Positions 13,288-57,381 of a stretch of 64,000 nt of DNA are shown here, in pieces. Every line of letters begins with the position of its first letter. The stretch's first letter is position 1. Where the stretch lies: the IMG/VR virus record IMGVR_UViG_3300037400_005412; one strand, given 5' to 3'. This DNA is from an uncultured virus (IMG/VR IMGVR_UViG_3300037400_005412). Its lineage: Duplodnaviria; Heunggongvirae; Uroviricota; Caudoviricetes. Both the position numbers and the translations under genes were made by a program. The notes under the pieces were generated by a model. That model ran no database searches and was not told where the DNA came from. It worked only from the letters and a program-made list of their open reading frames with translations.

Positions 13288-15459
13288 ATGTCAGTACAAG
13301 AAATTATATGGAATTATTTCTTAAATAAAGGTTTTACTCCATAGGCTATTAGTGGTATAATGGGAAATATTGATATAGAAAGTAATTTTGAATCTAATAA
13401 TGTAGAAGATGGACGTGGGTATAGTGACGAAGTTTATACCTCTATGGTTGATAATAAAATTTATAATAATTTTATTAATGATGGGATCGGGTATGGATTA
13501 GTTCAATGGACTTATTATATTTTTAAAAAAGATTTATTAGATAGATGCTAGCATGCAAATAAATCTATAGCTGATTTAAATTGTCAATTAGAACAGTTAT
13601 ATTCTCATTTACAAAGTGAAAATATATTAAATAAAATTAAAAATCTTACTTCAATAGAAGAAGCAACAAAAATATTTATGTTAAAATTTGAAAAACCAAA
13701 AGATTAGAGCTTAGAAGCTCAATAGGAAAGAATTAAGGCAGCGCAAAAATGGTTTAATATTTTTTAGACGAAATAGGGAGGGAGCAATAGTAAAATGAAA
13801 TATTCACAATCAAATCCTCCATTAATGTGTATGATGACTCATTCTACTTGTTATTAGCAAACAAACAAAATGTAGGTAAAAGGAGTATTATGGCATTCAA
13901 CAGGAGCAAATAATAAAACTTTAAAAAGATATGTATAGCCTAGTCTAGAAGATCCAAACTATGATAAACTTATATCATTAATTGGTAAAAATGTTAATAG
14001 AAATGATTGGAATAACATTTCTGTTTAGGCTGGATTAAATGCCTGGGTAGGTACTTTAGCTAATGGTACAGTTGCCGCTGTATAGACTATGCCTTGGGAT
14101 TATAAACCTTGGGGATGCGGTTCCGGCAGTAAAGGTAGCTGTAACAATGGCTGGTGCTAGTTTGAAATATGTGAAGATAATTTATCAGATCCTACATATT
14201 TTTCAGCAGTATATAAAGAAGCTTGTGAGTTAACTGCTTATATTTGTAAAGCATATAATATAAATCCTTTTGGAAGTGTAAATGGTGTCCCAACTATTCT
14301 TTGCCATTAGGATAGTTATAAATTAGGTTTAGGCACTAACCATAGTGATGTTTATCATTGGTTTAATCGCTATGGTAAAACTATGGATGATGTACGTAGA
14401 GATGTAACTAATTTATTAGGAAATAATAATACAACTATTTCTAATTAGGAAGAAAATTATAATATGTTGTTAAAAATAGGAATGGAAAATAATTCACAAG
14501 TAAAAGCTATGCAATAGGGATTACAAAAATTAGATTATAAAATAGAAGATGATGGTGATTTTGGACCTATTACAGAAAATGCTTTAAAAGATTATCAACA
14601 AAAACATAATCTTACTCCTAATGGAATTTTTGGAATAGAAACTTTTATATCTATGAAAAATGAAATTGCTAAATTACCAAAAACAATTAATATAACTACT
14701 AATTCAAAATATACTGATATAATGTTAGGTTCATCTTCAAAAGATGAAAATGGTCAGTACACTGGCGGTTAGGGGGGCGACCAAACTGGCAAAGAAGTGC
14801 ATATTTTAAATTGGTATAATAATGGTTGGACTAGTGTACTTCGTCCAAAAGATGATGATTTAGCAGAGAAAATAGCGAGTGCTTGTGAAAAAGGTTGTTT
14901 AAATGATAACATAGGATATAGTTAGTCTACTAGAAATACACTATTAGCATAGGCAAAATCAGTAGGATTAGACTTATCAAAAATTTCAACTCCTTGTAAT
15001 TGTGATTGTAGTTCATTTGTAAGTACTTGTTGTGTATGTGCTGGTTTACCAGAAAATTTATTCTTCCCATATGGAAATGGTTGTACTACTTGGACTATTG
15101 CTGATGCTTGTTTATAGAGTGGACAATTTATATAGTTAACAGATAATATATATTTGAATCAAAAAAATTATTTAAAACGTGGAGATATTTTACTTAATCG
15201 AAATAGTCACGTTGTAATAGTTTTAGGAAATGGTAATTTAACTTCGCCGTAGAAGGAAGAAAATCCACAAAGATTTCCTTATTATGTCAAAGTTGTAGTA
15301 CCAGCTTTAAATGTTCGTTCAGCTCCTAATAGTACAGCTTCTATAAAAGCATAGGTTAAACAGGGAGAAATATATACTATCGTAGCAGAGGAAGGAGGGT
15401 TTGGCAAGCTTAAATCAGGTGTTGGTTGGATTGATTTAAGATATGTCCAAAAGAAATGA
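13288..15459 (+). CDS. Multi-domain endolysin (723 aa): phage tail-lysozyme, Zn amidase, PG-binding, NlpC/P60-CHAP-like and SH3 domains
   Basis: Single frame with 22 TAG and no TAA/TGA; GIMGNIDIES/GYGLVQWT, WHSTGANN/FEICED/HSD, DGDFGPIT, DCSSFV/GDILL, LNVRSAP/GWI. Confidence 0.85.
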
Positions 15460-17466: not shown

Positions 17467-19365
17467 TTGGGTAAATTATACACAGAAGATAGCATAGAAT
17501 CGTTAAGCCCACTTGAATTTACAAGACTTAGACCTGGCGTTTATGCTGGTGACACAACATATGCTACTCAATTAGCAATAGAAATTTTTTCAAATGCTGT
17601 TGATGAATTTAGAGCTGGCAATGGTGATAAGATTGATATAACTATTAAAGGTCCAGTAGTTTCAATTAGAGACTATGGTCAAGGATTTATTCCAAATAGT
17701 TTTCGTGATGATGGTAAAACAATCCTTGAGGCAGCATTTAGTGTATTAAATACTTCTGGTAAATATCGTGAAGATGGTACATATGAAGGTACGTCATTAG
17801 GTTCTTTTGGTATTGGATCTAAAATTACTACTTATCTCTCACATTGGTTAAATGTTACTACATTTAGAGATAATGCAGCTGAAGAAATTCATTTTAAAGA
17901 AGGCGTTTTTGATAATCGTATTAGCGCTGATATAAATGAAAGACCATCAGGAACGTTAGTAGAATGGGAACCTAGTGAAGAATTTTTTACTCATCCAGAA
18001 GTAAATGTAAATGAATTAAAAACTCTATTTAAAACAATTTCTGCTTTATGCCCTGGTCTTACTATTAATTTAGATGATAATGGAAATAAAACAACTTATT
18101 TCTCTAAGAATGGTATTAATGATTTAGTGGATGAAGCAGTTGAAGGAAAAGAATTAATTAGAAATCGTTTTGTTATGAATTATCAAAATGATAAAAATAA
18201 AATTGATATGATTATGACATATACTTCTAATTATTCAATGAATTTAATCCCATATGTTAATACTGGTTTAACAGCAAATGGTCCACATATCTCACAAATT
18301 AAATCTCTTTTAACTCGTGAATTTAATAAATTTTTCCGTGATAAAAAATGGTTAAAAGAAAAAGAAGAAAATCTTTCTGGTGAAGATATACAAGAAGGAC
18401 TTTATATCATATTTAATATTACTGCTCCAAATGTAGCATATGATGCTCAAGTAAAAACAAGAGTTACGAAATTAGAAATGACTCCTTTTACTTCGGCAAT
18501 AGCAGAGGAACTTCGCGTTTGGTTTACAGCAAATGAAAAAGATATAAAGATGATCGCTGATAAAGCATTAGGTGCTCGTAAAGCAAGATTAGCAGCTCAA
18601 AAGGCCAGAGAAAATGCTCGCGAAGGACAAAAGAAAAAAGAAAAAGCCTTAAAATTTGACAGTAAGTTAACTGATTGTTATAGCAAAGATAGAAAAAAAT
18701 GTGAAATTTATATTACTGAGGGTGATTCTGCAAGTGGCAATTTAATTCAAGCACGTAATAATGAATTTCAAGCAATTTTACCTGTTCGTGGTAAAATTTT
18801 AAATACACATAAAGCTACTTTAGATAAAATTCAAAAAAATGCTGAAATTATGAATATGATTGATGCATTTGGTTTAGAAGTAGATTTAAAAACTATGAAA
18901 GTAACTTATGATCCGAATAAATTAAGATATGGTAAAATTATTATTATGAGCGATGCCGACGTTGATGGAGCTCATATTAAAAATCTTTTTTATACATTTA
19001 TTTGGAATTTTTGCCCTCAACTTATTGATGATGGATATGTCTATGCTGGTGTCCCACCTCTTTATAGAGTAGTAATGGGTAAAAAATATTATTATCTTAA
19101 AGACGATCCAGCATTAGAAGAATTCCGTAATAAAAATAAAGGTAAAAATTATGAAATTAATCGTTTTAAAGGTCTTGGCGAAATGAATGTTGAAGAGACA
19201 GAAGAAACATTGATTGATCCAGAAGTAAGAATTATTAATCAAGTAACTATTAGTGATGCTGCAAAAGCAACTAAATTATTTGATGATTTAATGGGAACAG
19301 CAGTAATTCCTAGAAAACAATATATTAAAGAGCATAGTAATGAAGCAACTTATAATGCAGAGTGA
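17467..19365 (+). CDS. gyrB: DNA gyrase subunit B
   Basis: LRPGVY, EIFSNAVDE, EGDSA, PVRGKILN, DADVDG, RFKGLGEM. Confidence 0.92.
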   Translation: MGKLYTEDSIESLSPLEFTRLRPGVYAGDTTYATQLAIEIFSNAVDEFRAGNGDKIDITIKGPVVSIRDYGQGFIPNSFRDDGKTILEAAFSVLNTSGKYREDGTYEGTSLGSFGIGSKITTYLSHWLNVTTFRDNAAEEIHFKEGVFDNRISADINERPSGTLVEWEPSEEFFTHPEVNVNELKTLFKTISALCPGLTINLDDNGNKTTYFSKNGINDLVDEAVEGKELIRNRFVMNYQNDKNKIDMIMTYTSNYSMNLIPYVNTGLTANGPHISQIKSLLTREFNKFFRDKKWLKEKEENLSGEDIQEGLYIIFNITAPNVAYDAQVKTRVTKLEMTPFTSAIAEELRVWFTANEKDIKMIADKALGARKARLAAQKARENAREGQKKKEKALKFDSKLTDCYSKDRKKCEIYITEGDSASGNLIQARNNEFQAILPVRGKILNTHKATLDKIQKNAEIMNMIDAFGLEVDLKTMKVTYDPNKLRYGKIIIMSDADVDGAHIKNLFYTFIWNFCPQLIDDGYVYAGVPPLYRVVMGKKYYYLKDDPALEEFRNKNKGKNYEINRFKGLGEMNVEETEETLIDPEVRIINQVTISDAAKATKLFDDLMGTAVIPRKQYIKEHSNEATYNAE

Positions 19366-19376
19366 GGTTAATATAA

Positions 19377-21719
19377 ATGGTAAGTGATATAGTAAAAGAA
19401 TTAGGAACTAATTTTATAGAGTATGCTGTTGCTGTTAATACAGACCGTGCAATTCCAGATGCTAAAAGCGGATTAAAGCCAGTAGCAAAAAGAATTTTGT
19501 ATGATGCTTATATTAGTGGATTTAGTAGTTCTAAAAAATATGTAAAATGTGCTCTTATGGTCGGTGACACAATGGGTCGTTTTCATCCACATGGGGATAG
19601 TTCAATTTACTCAGCTTTATGCCGTTTAGCTCAAGATTGGACTATGCGTTATCCATTAATTGATTTTCATGGAAATCTTGGCAATAGAGATGGTAGTGGC
19701 CCAGCAGCTTATCGTTATACAGAAGCAAGATTACACAAATTAACAGAAGATGGTATGTTATTTGGAATGAAAAAAGGAGTAGTAGATTACATTCCTAACT
19801 ATTCTGAAAATGAAAATGAGCCAGTAACATTACCTTCAATTTTTCCCAATCTGTTATGTAATCCTAATACGGGAATTGGTGTTGCAATGGCTTGCAATTG
19901 GGCTCCTCATAATTTAAATGAAGTGGCACAAGCAATTAATGATTATATAGATGGAAAAGAACCTATGCTTCCTGGGCCAGATTTTCCTACTGGTGGAATT
20001 ATTATTAATAAAAATGATATTCCAACTATTATGCGGACAGGTCATGGTAGTGTAAAAATCCGTGGTAAATATCATATGGAAGGAAATAATATTGTATTTA
20101 CAGAACTTCCTTATGCTGTTGTTACTGAGAATCTTATGAAAACTATTGGTGAATTATGCGATAGTGGAGATATTCAGGGAATTACAGAAATTCGTAATGA
20201 AAGTAACAGAAAAAGTGGTTTTCGTCTTGTATGTGAATGCGCAAAAGATGCTAATATTACGAAAATAATTCAATTACTTTTTCAAAAAACTGATTTACAA
20301 TCTTCATTTTCATATAATCAAGTAGCTCTTATTGATAAAACACCAACTGAATTAAATCTAAAAGATTGTTGTAAAATTTATATTGAGCATAATACTGAAT
20401 GTATTAAAAGAGAAGCTGAATATGATATTAATAAAGCAAAAGATAGATTAAATATTATTGAAGGTTTATTAAAAGCTCTTGAAGATATTGATAATGTAAT
20501 TGCTTTAATTAAAGCGTCTGAAAGTAGTGCAAAAGCTCGTGAATCATTAATGAAGAAATATGGTTTTAATGAAGAACAAGCTAAGGCAATTACTGATATG
20601 AAATTAGGTAAATTAGCTGGATTAGAAAGAATTGAAATTGAAAATGAAAAAGCTGAATTACTTACTACAATTGATGAATTAAATGCTATTCTTAATAATC
20701 TTATTGGAGAATTAAGAAAACGTCTTGATGTTATCGTTAAAAAATATGGTGATATCCGTCGTACCGAATTAGCGCAAATTGATACCCCAAAGACTAAAGA
20801 AGAAAAAGAAATTGCTGAAATCCCACCAGAAAAATGTGTAGTTGTAATGACTGAAAATGGTAGTTTAAAGCGTATTCCTGCTACTTCATTTAAGACACAG
20901 CGCAGGGGTGGAAAAGGCGTTAAAACACAAGAAGATATAACATCTGCGGTAATTCGTACTAATACAGTTGATAGTCTTATGATTTTTTCCAATAAAGGAA
21001 AAATGTATCGTTTGGTAGTAAATAATATTCCAGAAGGAACTAATACTTCAAAAGGAACTCCAGTAAGAGCTTTAGTTGAAATGGAAACTGGTGAAGATGT
21101 TTCTACTATTTATTCTATTTATCGTGATACAGACGCTAAATATGTTTTATTTGTTACTAAAAATGGTCTTGTAAAAAAGACTGCTTTGAGCGAGTATATA
21201 GGCACAAAGAAATCTAAAGGTATCGGTGCTATTAATATTAAAGATGGCGATGAACTAGCTGTTGTTACATTAGTAAAAGATGAACCACTTCTTATTGTCA
21301 GTAAAAATGGTTATGTGATTAGGTTTAATAGTGCTGATATTAGTACTACTGGTAGACTTACGGCTGGCGTTAAAGGTATTAATTTAAGTGAAGATGATTA
21401 TGTTGTTGCCGCTTTACCAATTCGTCATAGTGAAGATGATTTAGCGGTCTTTTCAAGTAAAGGATATGGTAAAAAAGTTAAGTTAGATGATATCCCAACA
21501 CAAAAACGAGGCGGGAAAGGTATTATTATTTATAAACCAAATGAAATATATGGAAATGCTAGCTGCGGTCAATTGATTAGTGATGAAGATATGGTGTTAT
21601 TAATTGGTAATAAAAATTCCGTATGCTTATCAGCAAAAGACATCTCAGAGATGGGAAGAGCTGCATATGGAAATATAATGTTAAAAAATAATTTTATCTT
21701 AGATGTGAGTAAAGTATAA
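19377..21719 (+). CDS. gyrA: DNA gyrase subunit A
   Basis: GLKPVAKR, HPHGD, AAYRYTE active site, GyrA-box QRRGGKG, pinwheel repeats. Confidence 0.92.
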   Translation: MVSDIVKELGTNFIEYAVAVNTDRAIPDAKSGLKPVAKRILYDAYISGFSSSKKYVKCALMVGDTMGRFHPHGDSSIYSALCRLAQDWTMRYPLIDFHGNLGNRDGSGPAAYRYTEARLHKLTEDGMLFGMKKGVVDYIPNYSENENEPVTLPSIFPNLLCNPNTGIGVAMACNWAPHNLNEVAQAINDYIDGKEPMLPGPDFPTGGIIINKNDIPTIMRTGHGSVKIRGKYHMEGNNIVFTELPYAVVTENLMKTIGELCDSGDIQGITEIRNESNRKSGFRLVCECAKDANITKIIQLLFQKTDLQSSFSYNQVALIDKTPTELNLKDCCKIYIEHNTECIKREAEYDINKAKDRLNIIEGLLKALEDIDNVIALIKASESSAKARESLMKKYGFNEEQAKAITDMKLGKLAGLERIEIENEKAELLTTIDELNAILNNLIGELRKRLDVIVKKYGDIRRTELAQIDTPKTKEEKEIAEIPPEKCVVVMTENGSLKRIPATSFKTQRRGGKGVKTQEDITSAVIRTNTVDSLMIFSNKGKMYRLVVNNIPEGTNTSKGTPVRALVEMETGEDVSTIYSIYRDTDAKYVLFVTKNGLVKKTALSEYIGTKKSKGIGAINIKDGDELAVVTLVKDEPLLIVSKNGYVIRFNSADISTTGRLTAGVKGINLSEDDYVVAALPIRHSEDDLAVFSSKGYGKKVKLDDIPTQKRGGKGIIIYKPNEIYGNASCGQLISDEDMVLLIGNKNSVCLSAKDISEMGRAAYGNIMLKNNFILDVSKV

Positions 21720-35856: not shown

Positions 35857-37623
35857 TTGGAATATAAATTAATAGCTCCTCGAAGAGATAATACTACTTT
35901 ATTAGAATAGATATTGTTTAATCGAGGCTTTAAAACTATAGAAGATATTAACCACTATATAATGGTGGATGAAAAAGATTTATTAAATCCTTTAGATTTA
36001 GATAATATAGAAGAAGGAGCAAAATTATTAGCTAAGCATATAGCAGCAAATAGTAAAGTTCATATTATAATTGATGCAGATAATGATGGCTATGCAAGTG
36101 CAGCATTATTTTTAAATTATTTTAATCGGCATTTTCCTTCTTGGGTTTAGAATAATATTACATATTCAACACATGAAGGTAAATAGCATGGTTTAAATGA
36201 TTAGGATTTACAAGAATATTTTGCTAATGATATAAAATTAGTTATTTTACCAGACAGTGCTAGTAATGATATAAAAGAACATCAATGGTTAGCATAGCAT
36301 GGGATAGATTGTTTAGTATTAGATCATCACGAAGCAGATTGCGGATACTCTCCTTATGCTGTTGTAATTAATAATTAGTTATCAAATAATTATTAGAATA
36401 AGGCTTTATGTGGCGCTGGCATAGTATATAAGTTTTGTTGTTATTTTGATTAGATTATGAAAACTAATTATGCTATTGAATATGAAGATTTAGCAGCATT
36501 GGCAAATATTGCTGATATGATGGATATACGTGAATTTGAGACTCATTATATTATTAAAGATGGTTTATAGCGCATTCGCAACCCATTCTTTGTAGAGATG
36601 ATGAATAGACAAAAGTTTTAGTTTGAGGGTGGTATTACCCCTATTGGAATTGCTTTCTATATAGTTCCTTATATTAATGCAATGACTCGCTCTGGGACAA
36701 TGGAAGAAAAGATGTTAATGTTTGAAGCTATGCTTGAATGGAAAAGTGATTTAATGATTCCTTCCACCAAGAGAGGCTGTAAAGGTCAAATAGAGCCATT
36801 ACACGAATAGGCTGGTAGGACTTGTATAAATGTAAAAAGTAGATAGAAGCGTAGTCAAGATGCTAGTTTAGAGTATGTAGAAAATTTAATTCAAGAACAA
36901 AATTTATTAAAACATAAATTACTAATTATTCGTGTACCAGAAGATACTGTTGATAAAAATTTAGCAGGGCTTATTGCTAACTAGCTTGCGGCTAAATATG
37001 CGCGACCCACTTTAGTATTACGTATATGTGAATCTCCTGATGGTAGTATTGTTTATTCTGGATCTGGTCGAAATTATGGTAAATCTAGATTGGAAGATTT
37101 TCGAGACTTCTGTAATTAGACAGGACTGCTAGTCTTTGGATAGGGACATTCTAGCGCATTTGGATTATCGGTCAAAGCAGAAAATTTTGATTAGTTTGTA
37201 AGTGTTACTGATGAATTGCTTAAAGATTTTAATTTTTCTCCTTGTTATACTGTTGATTTAGAAGTAACTGCTGAAGAATTCACTGATTAGGAAGTATTTG
37301 CTATTGGATCAAATGCTGACTTATGGGGGCAATATCTTAACGAACCATTGATTGCCATTACTGGAATTAAGATAGATAGCGAAGGGATTTCTTATATGGG
37401 ATAGAATAAAGATACTTTAAAGCTAACATTTCCAGGTAGAAAAACTAGCATGATTAAATTTCACGTTAAAGAAGAAGATAAAATACTATTAGATCCAAAT
37501 GGTGGAACTTTAACATTAACTGCTATTGGGAAATGTAATCTAAATCATTATAATGGAAATGTAACCCCATAGATTTTATTAGAAGATTTTGAAATTACTA
37601 AACGGACACAATGGGATTTTTAA
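35857..37623 (+). CDS. recJ: RecJ-like DHH ssDNA exonuclease (code 15)
   Basis: IDADNDG, LPDS, LDHH, LCGAG, IADMM, GSGR, GHSSAFG. Confidence 0.85.
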
Positions 37624-37702
37624 GATTGGCTGCACTGATAACGCTAGTAAGATCCGACATCTAAAATTAAAATTGCTTTTGGAAATTTTTTATGTAAATG
37701 AT

Positions 37703-37765
37703 ACTGCGCTTACCAATTTTTTACCAAAACATATAGTGATTTGGCAGAAATTTGGTAAGCGCAGT
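37703..37765. repeat. Palindromic element copy 2
   Basis: ACTGCGCTTACCAA...TTGGTAAGCGCAGT, 14-bp inverted repeat. Confidence 0.8.
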
Positions 37766-37944
37766 TTTCTTTTTGACAATTTAAAAATAATATGATATAA
37801 TTATTATAGAAAATAATATAAGGTGATAGTAATATATGAAAGATTTTACTTTTAATTTGAATTTTAAATTAGATTTATCAAATGTCATTGAAGAATTAAC
37901 AGAAATTTTAGATAAGTTAAAAGAAATATAGAATAAAGAAGAAA

Positions 37945-38250
37945 ATGATAATGAAATATAGTTATGAAGATAGTATTAAGATTAGTCAACAAGCATTAGA
38001 TTTAATAGATGTAAAAAAATTTTTAATTAGTGGTAAAGATATTTCTGATATAAAATATGATATACGTTTCTACATATATATTTCAGAAGATAAAGTAAAA
38101 AATTTTATATCGCAATATTCTGATATATTTGGAATAGATTTAGATATTTTTAATTATATAGAAGACGATGAGTTTATTAATTATTGTAAGAAAAGATATC
38201 CTGATATATGTTGGGGTAATGAAATAATAGAAAGGCATTGGGTAATATAA
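37945..38250 (+). CDS. Hypothetical protein
   Basis: Track ORF. Confidence 0.55.
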   Translation: MIMKYSYEDSIKISQQALDLIDVKKFLISGKDISDIKYDIRFYIYISEDKVKNFISQYSDIFGIDLDIFNYIEDDEFINYCKKRYPDICWGNEIIERHWVI

Positions 38251-38253
38251 AAA

Positions 38254-39538
38254 ATGGAAACTATTATATTAAATAATAAACAAGAGGAGGCGTTGAAATT
38301 AGCTGTAGCCAGATATAATCTTGGTATGCCATATACCGTAATATCTGGCTACGCTTAACGCTGGCTCTGGAAAAAGTACTCTTGTTAAATTTATAATTGC
38401 AGCATTAAATATTCCACCAGAGCAAGTAGCATATGTAGCTTATACAGGTAAAGCAGCTAATGTACTAAAAAATAAAGGTTGCCCAAATGCTACTACTGCG
38501 CATAAATTATTATATTATGCTAAAAGAACTAAAGAAGGATTTTTTATTTTTGAGCCTAAAGAAAGATTAGATGCTGATTATAAATTAATAGTTGTAGATG
38601 AAGTATCTATGTTGCCAGACGAAATGTGGTACTAGCTATTAAGCCATGGAGTTTATGTGCTGGCCTGCGGAGATCCAGGTTAGCTAGAACCAGTAAAAGC
38701 ATCTGCTGCGCCAGTTCTTGAGAAACCTCATATCTTCCTCGATGAAATTATGCGATAGGCACAAGAGAGTGCTATTATTAGGTTATCAATGCATATCCGT
38801 GAGGGAAAAGATTTTAGAACTTTTCCAACAGTAAGTGGTGAGGTGCGCATTATTCCTTCTAAATCTTTATTTTATGATGAAGATTCTGCTCTTCTTCAAG
38901 CTAGCTAGATTATTTGTGGGACTAATGAAGAGCGCAAACGTATTAATAATAGAGTTAGACAGCTAATTGGTCGAGGAGAATTGCCAGAAATTGGCGATAA
39001 AATAATTGGACTTGATAACCATTGGGATTGTATTAGTAAACAAGGTAATGCTTTAACCAATGGAGCTATTGGAACAATTAAAAATTTTAATTTAAAAGAA
39101 TAGCGATATCCTAATAAGACTGATTCACGATTTAAGTATTTTCCAGATTCTACTTTATTAATGTACACAGATTTTGAAACCGATGATGGGGATTACTTTC
39201 CAGAGTGTATAATGCCACTTGATTATAATTGTATTATTACAGGAGATCCAACTTTAAATCCAAAACAAGAAGCTAGTCTTGCTAATTATTAGAAAAATTT
39301 ATTAGCTCAAGCAAAAAGGAGAGATAATTTTCCTTTTGAAAGATATTGGAAAGATTTGCCATATCATTTTAATTATGCATATGCAATTACTTGCTGGAAA
39401 GCGCAAGGTAGTTAGTATCCATATGTATTAGGTTACGACTGCTCTTGGTTAAAACGGAAAAATACTGATGAATATAAAAAATACCTTTATACATTGGTGA
39501 CTCGTGCTGAATAGGCAGTAATTTTAGTGGGAGATTAA
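38254..39538 (+). CDS. RecD/Dda-like SF1B helicase; frame interrupted by a 7-nt insert at 38356-38362
   Basis: ISGYA[TAACGCT]GSGKST, AYTGKAA, VVDEVSM, GDPGQL, MRQA, YAITCWKAQGS, YTLVTRA. Confidence 0.85.
38305..38362 (+). promoter_or_regulatory. Candidate translational bypass/recoding element (stem-loop, take-off codon, TAA, landing codon)
   Basis: GTAGCCAGATAT/ATATCTGGCTAC 12-bp stem followed by GCT TAA C GCT. Confidence 0.65.
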
Positions 39539-39539
39539 A

Positions 39540-39719
39540 ATGACTAATTTTACAGAAGATTTTGAAAAAATTTTTGATGGATTACAATCTCTTCAAACTA
39601 ATCTTGAAGTTGAATTAAATAATTTAAATTAGCGTATAAGTTATTTAGAATATAAACAAACTCAAGATGATGAGTTTTATAAAAATTTAGAACTTTTAAT
39701 TCAAAAAAGGAATAAATAA
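39540..39719 (+). CDS. Small coiled-coil protein
   Basis: Open under code 15. Confidence 0.5.
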
Positions 39720-39721
39720 AA

Positions 39722-39892
39722 ATGGAAATTGAAATTACTCAAGAAATATTAGATGAAGTAAATATGTTTTTAAACAATGGATTAGTTTAGCTTTTAAATG
39801 ATACTGGAATGAGTTTTTCAGCATTAACATTTATAGCACAAAGTATAGTATCTGCGGTTGATAAAGTGCAAGAAGAACTTGACAAAAATTAA
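39722..39892 (+). CDS. Hypothetical protein
   Basis: Open under code 15. Confidence 0.45.
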
Positions 39893-39930
39893 GATTTATG
39901 ATATAATATATATGATAAATTATAAAGAGG

Positions 39931-42900
39931 GTGATTAATATAAATACTCAGATTAATACATTTTTTGATTGTCACGCTCATACTGAGTATTCTTAAATTT
40001 AATATAAGATTAATTGACTGTATCAATCATCCAAAAGACTTAATTAATAGAGCGATTGAAATAGGGCTTAGTGGATGTAGTATAACCGACCACGAAGCTC
40101 TATGCTCGCATATGATTGTTAATAAGTATGCTAAAGAGATAAAAGAAAAATATCCTGACTTTACAATCGCATTAGGTAATGAAATTTATCTTACAGATAC
40201 GAGAGATAAAGGACAAAAATATTATCACTTTATTTTATTAGCAAAGGATAGATTAGGGTATAAAGGTCTTTGTGAATTAAGTTCAACAGCTTGGTATAAT
40301 GTTTATGTAGATAGACGTCTTGAAAGAGTTCCAACTTTAAAAAGTGAACTTAAAGAGATTATGAAAAAATATAAAGGTCATATTATTGCGACGACCGCTT
40401 GTATGGGTGGAGAGCTATCTACGAATTTATATGGTTTGGCATTAGCAAGAAAAACTCAAGATAAAGAATATGAAAAATTATATTATGATAAAGCAGTTGA
40501 GTTTATAAATTTTTGTATTGATGTTTTTGGAAAAGAAGATTTTTATATTGAATGCGCCCCAAGCATAAAGTCAGATCAAGTAATTGTTAATAAACAATTA
40601 TTAAATGTTGCTCATGCTATGGGCTTAAAAATGGTAATAGGAACAGATGCTCATTATCTTAAAAAAGAAGATAGATATGTACATAAATCATATTTAAACT
40701 CAAAACAAGAAGAACGTGAAGTTGATGATTTTTATGAATATGCTTATATGCAATCTCCACAGGAAGTTAGAGAACATTTAAGTGCTTCAATGAGTGATAG
40801 AGATATTGATTGGATATTTGAAAATTCATTAGAAGTTAAAAATAAAATAGATTTTTATAGTCTTGAAAAACACCAACATATTCCAGAAGTAAAAGTAAAA
40901 AATTATCCAAAACAAGGATATTTAGAGTTTTTTGGCGGTTCGTTTGATGGCTATAATGATCAATTAGATGAATTTTATAACGAGTGTCCAATATTAACAG
41001 AACTTTTTAATAGTGATAATGTCCAAGAAAGATATTGGGTAAACCAATGTTTTGAAGCATTAATGGACAAAGGAATTGGTTTAAAACAAGAATATGTTAA
41101 AAGATTAGAAGAAGAGGCACGAGTAAAAAGAATTATTGGTGAAAAACTTCAAACTTGTATGTTCGCATATCCAAATACTCTTCAGCATTATATTGATTTA
41201 TTTTGGAGATGCGGTAGTACGGTTGGAGCAGGACGTGGTTCAGCATGTTCTGGTTTAAATCATTATCTTTTAGGAGTAACTCAACTTGATCCTATACAAT
41301 GGGACTTGCCCTGGTGGAGATATTTGAACGATGAGCGTGTTGAACTCGGTAGTCTATGGTTGATATTGCCGAGTTGTAAAAAAAGAATGTGAACCCTGCT
41401 AAGGGGTGTCAATTAATAAAATTGGCTAACGGTATTAGTGAAATAAGGCATAATGCACGAATCAACTAACTAAGAGAGCCTATGTCCTGAAATATGGATA
41501 GATTGGGGATACCGTGCTTTTTAACTATAATAAATAAAAATCCAGGTCAAAGTCTGCTAATTATATTATCTTAAATTTCATGTTATATAGAAAGAGAGAT
41601 GATATAATGAAAAGTTATTATATTTATTTAACTACTAATTTAATAAATAATAAAAAATATATAGGAATGCATCATGGCGAATTAAATGATGATTACCTAG
41701 GTAGTGGAAATAATATTGTCAATGCAATTAAGAAATATGGAAAAGAAAATTTTAAAAGAATAATTTTACATATTTCTAAAGATTATGAAGATAATTGTTA
41801 TTGGGAAAAATATTATATAGAAAAATATAATGCAGTAGCAGATAGAAATTTCTATAATATTCACGAAGGCGGAGCAGGTGGCAATACTATTGCTGGTTGG
41901 TCTAAAGAAAGATTAGAATAGTATAAAAAAGAAAAAAGTATAATGTCGTCTGGTAAAAATAATCCAAGATATGGGATCCATTTAACCGAAGAAACTAAAT
42001 AGAAAATTCGTGAAAATAGAAATACTGATTATATGAAAACTGAATAGTATAGAAAAAATATGTCTATGGCAGTTAGTGGTGAAAAAAATGGAATGTATGG
42101 GAAAAAACATACAGAAGAGGCTAAACAAAAAATGTCATAGCATAAAAAAGGAAAAAAATTAAATGCTGAAAATGGTAATGCAAAGAAAATAATTGCTTAT
42201 AAAGATGTCAAACATACTGAAAAAGTTAAAGAATTTGGATGTATTAAAGAAGCATTAATTTGGTTAGGAACAAATAGTAAAGATTATTCAGGTATTTCAA
42301 AAAGGATGAAAGAAAATAAACCATATAAAGGTTTTTATTGGGTTAAAGAGTGTAGAGACTAATATAAAGGGATAGAGATAAGCACTATCCTGTAGCGCAT
42401 TCGCATGATAATTGAAGTTATTGCACGCAGTAAATTATTATGTAAGAGATAGTCCATTAAAGGATATTGACTTAGACTTAGCGCCAAGTAAGCTTCCAAA
42501 AATTTTTGAAGAAATTCGTAAAGAACGTGGAGAATTTGGTATTGTCCAAGTTTGTACCTTTGGTACAGAAGCAACTAAGTCAGCAGTTTTAACCGCTTGT
42601 CGTGGTTATAGAAGTGAAGAATATCCAGATGGAATAGATGTTGATGATGCTCAATATATTTCATCATTAGTTCCACAAGAGCGAGGATTTTTATGGGATC
42701 TTCATGATATGATTGAAGGGAATCCTGATAAAGGTAGATTGCCGCAAAAACAATTCATAAATACAGTAAATCAATATCCAGGTCTTTTAGATATTATGAA
42801 AGGTATTGAGGGATTGGTATCTCGTAGAGGTATTCATGCTTCTGGTGTTATTTTATTTGATGAAGATATATTTAGTGAAGCAGCTATTATGAAAGCCAGA

Positions 42901-44997
42901 AATGGAAATTTAACAACTCAATGGGATCTTCATGACCAAGAAGCTGCTGGTAGTGTTAAATATGATTTTCTTTTAACTGCTGTTCAAGATATTATTATTG
43001 AAACAATTGATTTGCTTCAAGCAGATGAAGTTATAGACCCCACTTTATCTTTAAGAGAAGTATATGATAAATATCTTCATCCAAATGTTCTTCCGCAAAA
43101 TGATGATAAAATGTGGGACGCTTTGGCAAAAGGTAGTGTATTAGGAATATTTCAATTTGAAGGTTCTGTTGGAGCTCAAGCAGCAAAAAAGATTAAACCA
43201 CATAATCCATTAGAAATGGCTGATGCGAATGGATTAATGAGATTAATGGCAAGTGAACCTGGGGCTGAAATGCCACTTGATAAATATGTTCGTTATAAAA
43301 ATAATATTAATCAATGGTATATGGAAATGGATAGATGCGGTTTAACAAAAGAAGAACAAACAGCTATTGAGCCACATTTTAAATCTTCATATGGTGTCCC
43401 TCCAAGCCAAGAGCAGTTAATGCGAATGTTAATGGATGAAAATATCTGCGGTTTTACATTAGCAGAAGCAAATGCAGCTCGTAAAATTGTTGGTAAAAAA
43501 TAGATGTCTAAAATTCCAGGATTAAAACAAAAAGTTTTAGAATCAGCTAAATCTCCAAAATTAGGTGAATATATTTGGAAATATGGGGCTGGTCCATAGA
43601 TGGGCTACTCATTCAGTATTATTCATGCATTAGCTTATTCGTTTATTGGAATGCAAACATTATATTTAGGTGTATATTACCCTATATATTGGAATACGGC
43701 TTATTTAATTGTTAATAGCGGAGCATTGGGTGGCGATGAAGATGATGATGGAGATAAACAAGATGGAACAGATTATAAAAAAGTTGCGAAAGCTATTGGA
43801 TAGATTAGAGCTGCTGGAATTAAAATAAGTTTAGCAGATATTAATCGTTCAGAGTTTGGCTTTGTCCCAGATCCAGAGAATAATCAAATTCTTTTTGGTA
43901 TGAAGGGTATGTTAAATGTTGGCGATGATATAATTGAAGAAATTATAGCACATCGTCCATATATTTCTCCACGAGATTTTATAAATAAAGTAAAACCAAA
44001 TAAACAAGTTATGATTTCTTTAATTAAAGGTGGCGCTTTTGATAATTTAATTGATAGAAAAGAATGTATGGCTTGGTATTTATGGGAAAATTGTGATAAG
44101 AAAAAACGAATTACTTTATAGAATATGGCTGGATTAATGAAATATAAATTAGTGCCAGAAGACACCGATGAAAAGGTAATGGCGCGAAGGATATATGAAT
44201 TTAATAGATATTTGAAAGCAATTACAATTCCAGCGAATAAATTAAAACCATATTATGTATTGGATGAACGCGCCATGAATTTTTTAATAAATATTGAAAA
44301 AGAAGATTTAATTTGTCAAAATGGAAATATATATTGTTTATTAAAAGCAGATTGGGAAAAAATTTATCAATCTTATATGGATGTCTTTCGCCAATGGATA
44401 GCCGAAAATCATGATGAATTACTTAATAATTTAAATAAGTTAATTTTTATGGATGAATGGAATAAATATGCGAAAGGAACTATATCTGCTTGGGAAATGG
44501 AGTCTTTGTGTTTTTATTATCACGAGCATGAATTAGCGCATTTAAATAATTATAAATATGGATTTGTCGATTTTAATAAATTACCAGTTGAACCTAAAAT
44601 AGATAAAACATTTACTAAAGGTGGGCGCACTATTAATATGTATAAATTATATAAGATATGCGGCACTTGTATAGCTAAAAATAAAAATAAAAGTACAGTT
44701 TCTTTATTAACCACTACTGGAGTTGTAGAAGTTAAGTTCCGTCGTGAATATTTTGCTTTATTTGATAAACGAATTTCTGCTAAAGGTGAAGATGGGAAAA
44801 AACATATAGTTGAAAAATCATGGTTTGATCGCGGTAGTATGATTATTGTACAAGGAATGCGTTTAGATGATATGTTTGTATCAAAAAAATATGCTTCTTC
44901 TGGAGGGCATCAACTCTATAAAATTGATGAAGTTATTGATGATGAAATTAAAATAAGAACAACTCGCGCTCAAGGCGATGAAGAAGAGGAAGAATAA
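39931..44997 (+). CDS. dnaE: DNA polymerase III alpha (family C); 7-nt insert at 39994-40000 and group I intron at 41351-42462
   Basis: DCHAHTEYS[TAAATTT]NIRLID, ITDHE, TDAHY, GRGSA, ELG|DIDLD, GIHASGV, KYDFL, GIFQFE, GYSFSIIHA; start codon approximate. Confidence 0.9.
39943..40000 (+). promoter_or_regulatory. Candidate translational bypass/recoding element
   Basis: AATACTCAG/CTGAGTATT 9-bp stem followed by TCT TAA A TTT. Confidence 0.6.
41351..42462 (+). ncRNA. Group I intron in dnaE, just before the catalytic DIDLD
   Basis: Exon ends GGT, intron ends in G; R TGTAGAGACTA ~42351, S AAGAGATAGTCC ~42444; P1 AACTCGGT/GCCGAGTT. Confidence 0.88.
41607..42362 (+). CDS. Intron-encoded GIY-YIG homing endonuclease with NUMOD3 repeats
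   Basis: YIYLTTNLINNKKYIG, YLGSG, NPRYGIHLTEETKQKI, NGMYGKKHTEEAKQKMS. Confidence 0.85.
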
Positions 44998-53381: not shown

Positions 53382-53676
53382 GTCAACAGATAATGAATTT
53401 TATAAAAAATATATTATGCTTTTAGATGATGCAATAATTGGATGCATTATTATAACCAGTCAAACATATGTAAGTAATCTAAAAAATAAAAATGCTTTTA
53501 CTAAAGAGACTCAAGAAGAAGTTTTCAAAAAAACATATGATGCAGTTATGACAATATTAAGCAAAGATGCGGTAAAATATTTAAATAATGCTGTTGGTGA
53601 TTTAAATAGTTATATTATTAATAATATTCAAGTGCAAATTAAATTAAATAAAATTACTAAAAATGAAAATGAATAA
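53382..53676 (+). pseudogene. 5'-truncated paralogue of the holin-like gene at 509
   Basis: STDNEFYKKYI...QTYVSNLKNKNAFTKETQEE matches 509..973; no TM; in-frame TAA just upstream. Confidence 0.65.
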
Positions 53677-53681
53677 AAAAA

Positions 53682-53720
53682 ATAGGAGAACTCTTATATA
53701 ATAGAGTTCTCCTATTTTTT
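53682..53720. terminator. Bidirectional terminator, homologous to 971-1010
   Basis: ATAGGAGAACTCT/AGAGTTCTCCTAT. Confidence 0.75.
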
Positions 53721-56700
53721 ATTTTACTTTAATCCAAATTCTACCATTAATTTCAATATTATCACTGCCCCAATACTTATATACAGGAATTTCACTAACA
53801 TATCCTACGATCGCATCCGGCCATTCTCTTATTTCTTCTCTTGTCATAATACTAATTGTCCCATTCGGCCCAGAGCAAACTGCTTGCCCAGGTTTAAAAG
53901 AATTTCTCTCTTCTAATGGATAAGCTAAAACACGACCTGAAACTGCAATAGGTGTATTAGCATAATTTGATTCACCAATAGAAAATCCAAAAGTATCAGA
54001 TACAATATTAGCCCCTAGCTGAAGGCGCTATTTAGATAGTTCCAAATCACCATCGCCAAGCTCAACAACACACCGTCCTGGGGCAACATTATTAGTATGC
54101 CGATATTCGGCATAATCATTAAAGACAGCCCCATGTACTTTAAATCCCATAATAGATTTTCGTGCAGAAATACCACCTAAAGTAGTGATGCTTCCGCTTA
54201 CGTGGGCATCATTAAATCCTAAGCCAGGGGCTGGGCGCTATTCTATAGTCTAATTTGAAACATTCTCGCCATTAATTATTAATTCTCTTTTATAAAAATT
54301 AGAATCTAAAGAATAATATTCTCCAATCTCACATCTTATATAATCATCAGATAAATAATTATGTTTATTATAAATATTATTTCTATAAATATATAAATTA
54401 TCTTTTTTATTTTCCCAATTTTCAATGGAATAATAATATTTTTTTAAGTAAGAAGATTGATTTTCTAAATTAATAATTTTTTGATAATAATTTGTATTAT
54501 CATTTGGATTATATAACTAATATTTTGATATATAAATATATTCTGGTAAATTAATTATTTCAAAATTAGTCCCATTATAGTTAATGAATTCTTGCTAAGA
54601 ATCCTATACTTTTAATAGTATCTTATCATCATCATCTCTATATGTATTAAACGCATCCTCTGTAGTTATATTTAAACTTGTATTATTCATATAACTAGAC
54701 ACCATATAATAATTTTTTGAATTATCAAATTCAACAAATGGAGAGGATACTCTTATATAATTTCCATCTTCTATAAAATATACTCCAGATAATGCTAACC
54801 ATTTCCAATTTGTTGGTTTTACTCCTTGAATATTATTAATTTTTTCATGGTTCAAAGTATAGTAATTTACAGTTGATGAATAATTATTAAAATTATTTAA
54901 CTTAATCCAATTATTAGATTGAAAATAATATAATCCTTCTTGTATATCATTTTCAATTTGTTGCCTATAAGTTATATCATTTTCTTCAATAGTAGTATCA
55001 TAATCATCCATACTTACTTTACTATATTGATAATACTCAAATGGGCTAGCTTCAACGGTTAACTAATAATAATCCTAATTAGCTATTTGCCCTGGATAAT
55101 TATAATTAGGAATTAAATAAAAAGTATCATTATCTTTTATATAAAGTCCTTCTTGTATTTTACTATTCCAAGTACTTTCTGTCACACTTACTTTTTCATA
55201 GCATGTGGCATTATAATAATAATATACTTTAGTATTATCAAAATTAGGTTCATTAATAACTTTTTTGTAAGACCCATATTCATCTTCTTCATATAAGTTA
55301 TAAATATTAGTACGAGAAGGGTCTCGAACAATATTAAAATATTTACTTACTTGAGTTATATCAATTCCTTTATAAATAACATCAGTTTCCATATTTGGAC
55401 CTGGCAAAATATTATAGGTTCTTTTATAAATATCCTAATTTTTAATAATATTAGAATAATTCTTTAATAATTTATTAATTTCATAATTACTCTTATTATT
55501 TAATCCTTCTATTAAAACATATTGGTTCTCATTAGGATCTTTAATATAATAGTTAATATTATTATTATAATAAAAATATGTAATTAATTTATTATTATCA
55601 TCAAATAACTAATTTCGTCCAATATAATAATAAAAATTTTCTGAATTAACTGTATTATTATTTTCAATTATTTTATAATAATGTTCTGTGTTACGAATAA
55701 TAGTATTTTCTAAAGTAACTTCTTCAAGAACGTTATTATCATTTAATTTATAATATGTCTATTCTTCAATAATTTCTGTACCAGAAGCTTCTTCTTCAAA
55801 AATATGATAATTTATATTATTATTATTATATATATTATAGATAATATCGTTATTTTTTTCATAGCTATCTACAAAAATATTATTTTCAGATATCGCACTA
55901 TTCCAAGAACTCTCATCTGAATTATCATAATTAGTAAATTCAAAATCATATATATTGTTAGGCGCTACTTCTTCATAGTATGTTATGCTAGAATCATATA
56001 TGTCATCAGTATTTTTATTAATAAAACCTAAATATTTATATTTTTGTATAGAGGTAAGCTCTTCTAAGAACTCTTGAAAATTAATACCAGAATTAAATGG
56101 GTCAAGTATTTTTTCAGTAGGATTAGCCCAAGTATATCCTGTTCGACGAATATAAGAAGAAGTATAAATAGTCTAAACTATAATAAAAGAATTTTTATAA
56201 TTAATATCATATATCTAGCCTATCTCAACGTCCTAATTTTGATTATTAATTTTTAATTTTAAAGTATTAACAATTTTTTGCTAATTTTTAGCATTCGGTT
56301 TTTCACTAGTCCCACCGGTACATTGAACAGTCTATATCTTTTTTATCTAATATCCAGCTATGCCAGATTCTTCTTGATAATTTTCTTTTACGGCAAAATT
56401 AAAATGAGTTAATGAACTATCTGAATCATTATTAGTAGATAAAATATTATTACTATCTTTATCTTTATTAATTATATTATAAGTCCATCCATCACTAACA
56501 GCACCTTCTGTTGTTTCAATCCATCTATCTGCTTCTGTCTAATCTTTAATAGCTAAAGATGAATCAAAAGATGTTGCACCATCCCCTATAATATTTAAAT
56601 TATTAAGAGTTGCTGTATCTGTAAATAAATTATCGCATTCTAAAGTATTAGTTCTTATATTTCCGCCGCCATCTTCTACTTCGGCATAATATAATACAAT

Positions 56701-57381
56701 ACCTGGATACCCTTCTTGATCTTCTCCGTAAAAATTCTAATCTGATAAAATAGCTACATTTTTTATTTCATCAAATGAATTTAATCTTTCATAATCATTA
56801 TTATTTTTTTTCTAATAAAATATTAAATTACTTAAATACTCTAAATTTTTAAAACTTTCTTCGTTGGGGCAATCTAATATTTGCGCGAGATCAGATTGGC
56901 TAATTTGTACGTATTGATAATTTGAAAAATCTCCATTATTATCAAATCCTTGAATTCGTATATTTCTATTAACATTATTATTTTCCTAAATTTGAAAAGT
57001 TCCTGATAATTTATTATTAGAAATTTCATTAATTTCTTCAGGGGAAAAAATTAATTTATTTCCTCCTATAATCCAAGTATATCTTTTAGAGTTCTAATTT
57101 TCTTGAATATTAATATTCCCAAGCTCGTCTTTAATTAATCCAATCTATTGATTAATAATACATATCTACTAATCATATTTATCATAATTCCATAAATCCA
57201 CAAAAATTTGCGCGATCTCTTTTTCATCATCATTGAACTATGAAACATCTTTAGATTTCATACTAGCTATAGAAACAAAATGGTATGTATCTCTAATATC
57301 AGACTTAATAGATTTTATAAAACCTATTAAACTATCTTGAGTAAAAATGACATCTTCATTATGATGTACATTATTATTCAT
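53719..57381 (-). CDS. Large Asn/Tyr-rich fibre-like protein (~1220 aa) with C-terminal peptidase-G2-like chaperone domain
   Basis: ATG 57381 with GGAGG; track fragments in one frame joined by TAG (frame spot-checked); GAVFNDYAEY...GRVLAY...GRIWIKVK*. Confidence 0.65.

Follow-up and report, generated by a model that had tools for sequence, protein, structure and literature searches.

How can a functional helicase be made from a gene whose P-loop is split by a stop codon? This question is raised by a 64,000-nucleotide (nt) stretch of DNA from an uncultured virus of the class Caudoviricetes (IMG/VR record IMGVR_UViG_3300037400_005412; hereafter, the window), in which a RecD/Dda-like helicase gene is interrupted within the Walker A motif by a TAA codon and a change of reading frame. 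The original prediction, made from the letters alone, was that tRNA-Ala could hop over the stop to give GYAGSGKST, as opposed to a +1 shift that would give GYANAGSGKST. Comparison with the relatives of this gene likewise favors the hop, given that the homologs carry no insert at this position and that gaps of different lengths interconvert; it also brings to the fore two aspects that the prediction overlooked, namely the reading of TAG as glutamine (Gln) and the link between the gap and a homing endonuclease cassette. The joint reading, according to which a short stop-hop restores GYAGSGKST and the gap protects the DNA against a homing endonuclease, is the probable explanation of these comparative data, and the window is likely to encode a single functional Dda/RecD-like helicase of superfamily 1B (SF1B) with an untranslated 7-nt gap in Walker A.

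The interrupted helicase gene and its relatives

The DNA around the break reads ATA TCT GGC TAC GCT TAA C GCT GGC TCT GGA AAA AGT, and re-reading of positions 38353-38362 returned the letters on which the original prediction was built. The product of frame 1 is METIILNNKQEEALKLAVARYNLGMPYTVISGYA, followed by TAA; frame 2, starting at 38360, encodes AGSGKSTLVKF… and continues for 392 codons up to the TAA at 39536, with no further frameshift and no TAA or TGA stop among these codons. The split amounts to 7 nt inside Walker A; with the second GCT assigned to the coding sequence, it is equivalent to one stop codon and a single base. Together, the two parts align end to end with intact homologs and constitute one gene in two frames. 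In PHROG, the split gene matches Dda-like helicase (E 5e-77), and in Pfam, AAA_30 (2.7e-20), AAA_19 and UvrD_C_2 (1e-13); the P-loop NTPase core, motifs I-VI and the UvrD_C_2 C-terminal domain that characterize SF1B RecD/Dda-like helicases are all present. The structures matched by an intact relative are 9kwf, RecD2 (3e1s) and Dda (3upu). Among deposited phage genomes, the best matches show at most 38% identity (Bacillus phages AR9 and PBS1).

The stretch is phage DNA with a G+C content of 29.3% in which the open reading frames (ORFs) and the conserved Gln positions indicate that TAG is read as Gln. All 8 in-frame stops of the downstream helicase frame (38360-39535) are TAG, and TAG occupies the invariant Gln columns of the GDPGQL, MRQA and ASQ motifs; treating TAG as a sense codon brings the summed length of ORFs with 150 or more codons from 7519 up to 18235 codons and restores a dense gene map. 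Because the helicase TAG codons fall on invariant Gln residues and the ORFs are restored when TAG is sense, the sequence evidence indicates that the phage uses a TAG=Gln code in which TAA is a true stop. A tRNA scan of the 64-kb window detected 0 genes, hence neither a suppressor nor a tRNA-Ala gene among them. TAG use is uneven among the genes of the window: there are no TAG codons in the topoisomerase II genes (17467-21719) and in polymerase part 1 (39965-41392), 22 in an endolysin-like gene (13288-15459) and 26 in 53719-57381, a pattern that may reflect a split between early and late expression.

Two collection scans together with an earlier scan yielded 166 related loci (denoted by L numbers), or 167 rows with the window; the junction is classifiable in 161 rows, the remainder being four that are too short upstream, L158, which lacks the motif, and L122, which carries an intein in the P-loop. 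The 113 intact and 48 interrupted rows were reduced by de-duplication to 120 unique alleles, 83 intact and 37 interrupted. The break falls on one and the same codon in all 37 and has a common layout, GGC TAY GCN, stop, a spacer of -1 to 2 nt, a triplet and GGN, with a gap of 5 nt in 21 alleles, 6 nt in four, 7 nt in 11 and 8 nt in one. The stop directly follows the take-off GCN in 37 of 37 (TAA in 27, TGA in 10, TAG in none), the next base is mostly C (30, against G in 5, A in 1 and T in 1), and the take-off codon is GCT in 28 alleles, GCC in 8 and GCA in 1. The matched landing codon stressed in the original prediction holds for the window (GCT/GCT) but not as a rule of the family: GCN would serve for landing in 13 of the 37 alleles, and the other 24 have a triplet with one mismatch (ACY in 21; also GTT, TCT and GTA). 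The 83 intact unique alleles all encode GY-AG[ST]GKST, without a two-residue insert, and in the alignment with the solved relatives 9kwf, RecD2 (3e1s) and Dda (3upu), the 8-residue P-loop likewise contains no insert. Gap length changes by single bases among close relatives, with TAAGCA (L116), TAAGGCA (L085), TAAAGCA (L063) and TGACT (L070) in one clade, and TAAGCT (L084) and TAACT (L065) in a second.

The 7 nt are not confined to one assembly. A separate contig, L007, that is 96-98% identical to the window has the identical junction, and two contigs from DNA runs span the 7 nt gap-free (X3 record 22, 38211-38838; X2 record 3, 38305-39600). An RNA library supplied one further contig across the site (X24 record 13, 162 nt, 38276-38416), with 0 gaps and with none of its listed substitutions in the hairpin arms or the gap; this single contig, from a library that may contain DNA, gives no more than a hint of retention of the 7 nt in the mRNA. 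The RNA runs, X23 and X24, represent small shares only, and their uncovered parts are uninformative.

The gene behind the break is under purifying selection, as judged from the ratio of nonsynonymous to synonymous substitution rates (dN/dS), which was computed for 13 pairs with both alleles interrupted and is 0.029-0.195 in 10 of these. Low values were obtained for the window and L007 (0.029, at a synonymous divergence dS of 0.30), L001/L002 (0.029), L108/L065 (0.040) and L146/L138 (0.041), followed by L025/L003 (0.085) and L084/L075 (0.107); the deeper pairs L084/L065, L075/L065 (0.173) and window/L009 lie at 0.17-0.20, and the outliers are L009/L021 (0.349) and L063/L085, which is saturated. 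One clade of 12 unique rows is interrupted throughout (two 6-nt and ten 5-nt alleles). The original prediction had considered that the insert might be absent from reads or relatives, or that the gene might decay like a pseudogene; instead, the 7 nt are present in L007, in contigs from other runs and in relatives, and the downstream gene shows low dN/dS and no extra frameshifts or stops. By these comparisons, the break is neither an error nor decay. An excess of synonymous conservation between the window and L007 was also considered and set aside as uninformative, the first 55 downstream codons being identical too.

A hairpin abutting the take-off codon and a mobile cassette

The original prediction pointed to a 5' stem that ends directly before the take-off codon. 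Its 12-nt arms, GTAGCCAGATAT and ATATCTGGCTAC, are indeed exact reverse complements, and the inner stem, described as GGTAT/ATACC, comprises 7 base pairs (bp) in the RNA fold (38322-38328 with 38332-38338); the fold of the window combining both stems has a minimum free energy of -26.2 kcal/mol (z = -3.13), with 1 of 200 shuffles as good. Given that 41 pairs of 12-nt inverted repeats within 60 nt occur in the window, such a repeat is not rare in itself and its rarity was dropped as evidence. A scan of the 247 stops followed by an out-of-frame ORF of at least 150 codons identified the hairpin at this site as the longest that abuts a pre-stop codon and revealed no other convincing hop-like site in the window. 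The signal goes beyond chance because the same break and hairpin recur in relatives.

An anchored helix of at least 6 bp, extending from -48/-47 to -1/-2 of the take-off codon, is present in 34 of the 37 interrupted unique alleles; the helix length in interrupted alleles is 6-15 bp, with at least 8 bp in 28 of 37. Any anchored helix of at least 8 bp is found in only 8 of the 83 intact alleles and, at -48, only in L028 and L035. When the 12-pair structure is imposed on the interrupted alleles, 80.4% of the cells are paired versus 21-53% in slid controls; for the intact alleles, the value of 57.8% is no better than that of a slid control at 54%. The eight outer pairs are kept in 24-28 of the 28 distinct interrupted rows. 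Compensatory changes are few but clear, and the covariation score is matched by 5 of 500 shuffles: L076 carries the compensatory pairs GTAGCCCGCTAT/ATAGCGGGCTAC (CCCGC/GCGGG), and in L116 and L044, the closing G-C pair is replaced by A-T. In the lineages of L065, L134 and L084, the stem is lengthened by ATACAAG/CTTGTAT over a 2-nt bulge, and that of L070 reaches 15 bp. At third codon positions, the 26 distinct interrupted hairpins share an identity of 0.83 in the stem versus 0.50 in the loop, whereas 77 intact alleles reach 0.34 and 0.39, respectively; the Gly codon of the hairpin is GGC in 26 of 26 interrupted versus 17 of 77 intact sequences. The conservation of the stem in interrupted relatives, along with the compensatory changes, supports the earlier suggestion that the stem is a signal.

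In a tree of 111 helicase bodies, from which the junction was excluded and rows shorter than 300 amino acids (aa) were dropped, the hairpin tracks the gap in about 9 of 11 independent contrasts and opposes it in 0 (sign test, median p 0.004). Two intact alleles, L028 (1328-1384, 12 bp, GGC TAC) and L035 (1447-1503, 8 bp, GGT TAC), retain the -48 hairpin together with the TAC Tyr codon, and are possibly revertants with a precise loss of the gap, or pre-adapted recipients. A further observation concerns the hexamer CTGGCT, which occurs at 38345-38350 and 38361-38366, flanking the gap, which in the window gives the 5' arm a possible second partner beyond the gap; this second pairing is not conserved in relatives and is probably a chance product of Ser-Gly/Ala-Gly codons.

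The interrupted state is mobile. It requires 18 changes on the helicase tree, at least 11 of them on well-supported branches, and near-identical bodies occur in opposite states (L009/L008, L021/L016, and L001 with L002 versus L024). In L009, L021, L038, L044, L070, L085 and L027, an extra ORF of 165-176 aa is located directly upstream of the helicase, and in L063, the same place is taken by a 293-aa ORF that matches HNH, homing-endonuclease and intron-encoded-nuclease families in PHROG. The two ORFs of the 165-176 aa type that were scanned, those of L009 and L070, match the PHROG HNH endonuclease family (phrog_2255; E 4e-24 and 2e-23); the Pfam support for the upstream endonuclease ORFs is weak, below the Pfam cut-offs. 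Counted over unique alleles with at least 750 nt of upstream flank, an upstream endonuclease gene accompanies 8 of 35 interrupted and 0 of 69 intact alleles (Fisher 9e-5), and the tree provides 6 independent contrasts for this link, none of which points the other way (median p 0.031). In these relatives, the homing endonuclease gene lies between the homolog of the small 101-aa gene that precedes the helicase in the window and the helicase start.

The boundaries of the moving block can be traced in L009 and L021, in which the 620 nt that lead up to the gap are 97.4% identical and the first 102 helicase nt 99% identical, but the bodies only 69%; conversely, the bodies of L009/L008 and L021/L016 share 96.6% and 92.9% identity, respectively, and their first 102 nt only 67-68%. 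The alignment places the crossover within about 10 nt 3' of the gap. From these comparisons, the moving block is a single cassette that consists of the endonuclease gene, helicase codons 1-34 and the gap, and a tract pattern of this kind is characteristic of intron-less homing accompanied by co-conversion and agrees with the account of T4 given below. The first 102 nt of the window helicase are 86% identical to those of L009 and L021 and 82% identical to those of L044, but no more than 74.5% identical to those of any intact allele. There is no endonuclease gene in the helicase flank of the window (last base of the upstream gene, 38250; first base of the helicase, 38254); we infer from these similarities that the window allele has lost the endonuclease gene, or has undergone partial conversion and never received it. 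L122 (400-1599) has an intein with a LAGLIDADG domain inserted in its P-loop (…YIVTHN|TTLVK). Because this intein occupies the same site, the helicase P-loop is, by sequence comparison, a homing hot spot, and the intein is the third kind of selfish element there.

Two observations pertain to L001 and L002. Their 5-nt allele differs from the intact twin, L024, by GGA TAT -> GGC TAC plus 5 nt only (L001 2980-3010), a patch that matches the L108-type junction and indicates a very short conversion from which the hairpin's 5' arm is missing. In some relatives, a second HNH gene (223 aa; L001 4348-5016, L018 about 2410-3057) is located between the helicase and polymerase genes with either junction state; this gene, 3' of the helicase in L001, was rejected as the linked endonuclease, given that a homolog lies beside the intact L018 and is absent beside the interrupted L002.

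Decoding of the gap and competing explanations

In the proposed mechanism, Ala GCU would occupy the ribosomal P site and the A site would face UAA followed by C, a poor termination context; the peptidyl-tRNA-Ala would unpair, the mRNA would slide by 7 nt, and re-pairing on the next GCU would allow decoding to resume at GGC 38363. The product would be …ISGYAGSGKST…, as in the intact homologs, with the junction peptide VISGYAGSGK. The 3' arm of the 48-nt hairpin would be inside the ribosome at take-off and could re-pair only as the mRNA exits; by analogy with the 5' stem-loop of T4 gene 60, such re-pairing may drive or ratchet the forward slide. The gap itself would be the 3' end of a mobile cassette that homes into intact helicase alleles, as seen in the relatives and inferred for the window, and most likely destroys the endonuclease target in the conserved P-loop DNA; the window allele would have kept the 5' patch of the cassette and the gap, with the endonuclease gene lost or never received. 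Skipping of the gap yields the intact-type product for every gap length, and single-base indels within the gap would be tolerated by a hop but not by a fixed shift. The absence of TAG from all 37 alleles and the presence of C after the stop in 30 of 37 fit the need for a slow, undecodable A-site codon.

Several points weigh against this reading. Only 13 of the 37 unique alleles offer an Ala codon for landing; in the most frequent class (5 nt, 21 of 37), the tRNA would have to re-pair with ACY, with a mismatch in the first position. Furthermore, every class is also readable as GYA plus two residues plus G[ST]GKST, which fits the [AG]xxxxGK[ST] pattern. L001, L002 and L003 have no hairpin, yet dN/dS for L001/L002 is 0.029; because these hairpin-less alleles keep such a low value, the hairpin is not indispensable. 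The association between the hairpin and the gap on the tree is partly a matter of physical linkage: since both belong to one converted patch, the association reflects linkage as much as co-selection, and the better evidence for selection on pairing comes from the stem-versus-loop contrast and the compensatory pairs. No endonuclease gene is present in the examined flanks of 27 of the 35 interrupted alleles, the window included, and the cleavage site of the endonuclease and the protection conferred by the gap are putative. Finally, the support for the hop is comparative.

An alternative explanation is recoding that differs among the gap classes and inserts two residues: a +1 shift in the 7-nt class (in the window, at GCU UAA C, to give GYANAGSGKST and the peptide VISGYANAGSGK), a -1 shift in the 5-nt class, UAA readthrough in the 6-nt class and a +2 shift in the 8-nt class. 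Each of these readings retains the [AG]xxxxGK[ST] pattern, in 37 of 37 alleles, a small residue (A, T, V or S) is specified by the triplet that precedes GGN, all four GCN codons are used in the 7-nt class, as would be expected of a translated Ala codon, and the +1 shift in RF2 classically takes place at a stop with C behind it. Nevertheless, four mechanisms would have to operate at one site where one-base indels switch the class within clades; tRNA-Ala would not re-pair on CUU (+1) or CGC (-1); there is no Shine-Dalgarno-like or GGAGG-like run in 38335-38352; UAA is the stop codon least likely to be read through; and the insert is absent from 83 of 83 intact unique alleles and from the solved relatives. 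Because the gaps of 5-8 nt interconvert by single-base indels and shifts would need four mechanisms, the hop is favored, and we consider class-specific recoding unlikely. The site might also be an autonomous regulatory one that sets the helicase dosage through the hop efficiency, next to which endonuclease genes merely settled. This possibility draws on the same 27 of 35 alleles without an endonuclease gene in the examined flanks and on T4, where, according to 10.1101/2022.08.31.505936, bypass is only about 50% efficient and a second function is suspected. However, all 8 upstream endonuclease genes, of three kinds, are found beside interrupted alleles versus 0 of 69 beside intact ones, the conversion tracts end at the gap, and the LAGLIDADG intein of L122 occupies the same P-loop site, which makes autonomous regulation quite improbable.

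True termination at the stop would leave a dead helicase, a 34-aa peptide along with a separately started fragment, or trace levels of the full-length protein, with the cassette spreading the break. The cassette is selfish and spreads between backbones, most insertions look recent, with near-identical interrupted and intact twins, and in the TGA forms of the 5-nt class, a TTG that overlaps the stop (TTGA) could restart translation. By contrast, the 7-nt, the 6-nt and the TAA forms have no start codon before Walker A, the next ATG (38609) being behind the P-loop; dN/dS is 0.03-0.11 in close interrupted pairs and a 12-row clade is interrupted in its entirety; the 392 codons contain no further frameshifts or TAA/TGA; and the selection on the hairpin is confined to interrupted alleles. 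Accordingly, termination is a very unlikely explanation. For an artefact of assembly or sequencing, or the removal of the 7 nt at the RNA level, no point in favor was found, and the same junction in L007 and many independent contigs, the two contigs from other DNA runs and the one from the RNA library that span the site with 0 gaps, and the lack of any Rfam family in 37500-43000 render it hardly credible.

The short hop thus remains the probable reading. We lean, if only slightly, towards a more general view, namely that stop-led micro-gaps of 5-8 nt behind an abutting hairpin form a natural, recurrent class of programmed bypassing that originates, in the best-conserved motifs of phage replication genes, as marks by which free-standing homing endonucleases secure self-immunity, with the pull of the hairpin, as it re-forms on the exiting mRNA, making even a mismatched landing sufficient. 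Programmed bypassing has so far been known from one phage cassette, T4 gene 60 with its homologs, and one yeast mitochondrial system. If true, the present case would be a second, unrelated and much simpler bypass system, and it would show hopping to be a general means by which phages accommodate endonuclease-immunity inserts in motifs where amino-acid changes are not tolerated. It would also reduce the signals to a minimum, namely a stop followed by C and a hairpin on the 5' side, so that pairing of the exiting mRNA as the driver becomes testable, and it would correct gene calling, by which such helicases of TAG-recoded gut and rumen phages are now predicted to be broken or N-terminally truncated. 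The helicase family amounts to a natural mutant series for experiments on ribosome hopping, with one site, four gap lengths, varied landing triplets, and the hairpin present or absent.

Known recoding systems and other features of the window

The closest parallel is the T4 gene 60/MobA system. As in T4, the gap lies in an essential DNA-metabolism gene of a large phage, the stop directly follows the take-off codon, an mRNA stem-loop is located 5' of it, and, in relatives of the window, a co-converted tract next to an HNH gene has the gap at its distal end. As in T4, too, the gap probably outlives the endonuclease gene, and HNH can be swapped for another endonuclease type (here, in L063). The two systems are not homologous, with the insertion in the helicase P-loop here and in the topoisomerase Toprim domain in T4; the gap here is 5-8 nt as opposed to 50 nt, which leaves no room for a take-off/A-site stem-loop or an internal Shine-Dalgarno sequence; the hairpin ends 0 nt rather than 9 nt before the take-off codon; tRNA-Ala takes the place of tRNA-Gly; many of the landing triplets are mismatched; the coding sequence is not divided into two genes; and no nascent-peptide signal is known for the helicase case, which is known from sequence. 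The topoisomerase II genes of the window (17467-21719) are intact ORFs, so that there is no sign of a MobA/gene 60 insertion by descent.

The T4 bypass insert is reported to block self-cleavage by MobA (10.1101/2022.08.31.505936; PMC5009743); according to the former, the family includes phages that keep the bypass after the loss of MobA, and the cassette is called unique and restricted to topoisomerase genes (10.1101/2022.08.31.505936). A "driver" model for the 5' stem-loop of gene 60 is outlined in 10.1101/2024.12.09.627546. According to a 2016 review, no natural in-frame stop-hop was known (PMC5009743). A full-text literature search returned only the T4 gene 60 work and no natural short hop, helicase bypass or recoded-phage bypass; the supplementary metagenomic cassette tables of 10.1101/2022.08.31.505936, which are relevant to novelty, were outside this search. 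With strong support from the comparisons, the helicase gap is probably a miniature, non-homologous analog of the gene 60/MobA principle.

Among other systems, artificial stop-hop constructs share their layout with the 6-nt alleles (GCT TAA GCT in L084 and GCT TAA GCA in L116), and the window has the same layout with one additional spacer base; these constructs are artificial and of low efficiency, unlike the site described here, which is natural, conserved and accompanied by a hairpin. RF2 (prfB) is expressed through a programmed +1 frameshift at CUU UGA C. The stop plus C in the A site as the slow step is common to both cases, but the helicase site has no slippery P-site codon (GCU U gives CUU, which is not Ala) and no upstream Shine-Dalgarno sequence, and the 5-, 6- and 8-nt relatives cannot use a +1 shift. 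The byps of yeast mitochondria are GC clusters of 27-55 nt that, unlike the helicase gap, are mitochondrial and have no known endonuclease partner. Byps and the helicase gap are alike in being short, mobile inserts in essential genes that ribosomes skip, or, for the helicase gap, probably skip, and byps are described in these terms, as non-coding inserts of Magnusiomyces mitochondria, in PMC5009743. The L122 intein has the same target site and helicase family as the gap, and in both, the damage caused by a selfish element is repaired after transcription, by protein splicing in the intein and, as proposed, by decoding in the hop.

The features of the helicase locus are collected in Table 1. The neighbors of the helicase named by PHROG include a RecJ-like exonuclease, a DnaE-like polymerase, both topoisomerase II subunits, an NAD ligase and an endolysin.

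Table 1. Features at and next to the interrupted helicase gene, in window coordinates
Feature	Coordinates	Strand	Remarks
Small conserved gene, 101 aa	37945..38250	+	no family match; adjoins the helicase gene in the window, with no endonuclease gene between
Helicase part 1	38254..38355	+	ATG to take-off codon, 34 codons, METII…PYTVISGYA (beta-1 and start of Walker A)
Hairpin 5' arm	38305..38316	+	GTAGCCAGATAT
Hairpin 3' arm	38341..38352	+	ATATCTGGCTAC; last base directly before the take-off codon
Take-off codon	38353..38355	+	GCT (Ala)
Proposed 7-nt coding gap	38356..38362	+	TAACGCT: TAA 38356-38358, C 38359, landing GCT 38360-38362
Helicase part 2	38363..39538	+	GSGKST… to VILVGD, TAA 39536-39538; 8 TAG; motifs Ia-VI

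The DnaE-like polymerase gene downstream of the helicase is interrupted as well (41345-42470): its coding sequence stops after …ERVELG (about 41350), resumes with DIDLDLAPSK (about 42466) and is contiguous in L001. The insert of about 1.1 kb carries a GIY-YIG/NUMOD3 endonuclease gene (41580-42362) and is probably a group I intron or a similar element, although a search of Rfam over 37500-43000 gave no match at E <= 1 for this insert or for the helicase hairpin. The window also contains two families of long repeated hairpins, one at 434-493 and 37696-37772 and the other at 964-1010 and 53667-53730; the core is GCGCTTACCAAA in one family and ATAGGAGAACTCT in the other, and both families are likely to be terminators or regulatory repeats.

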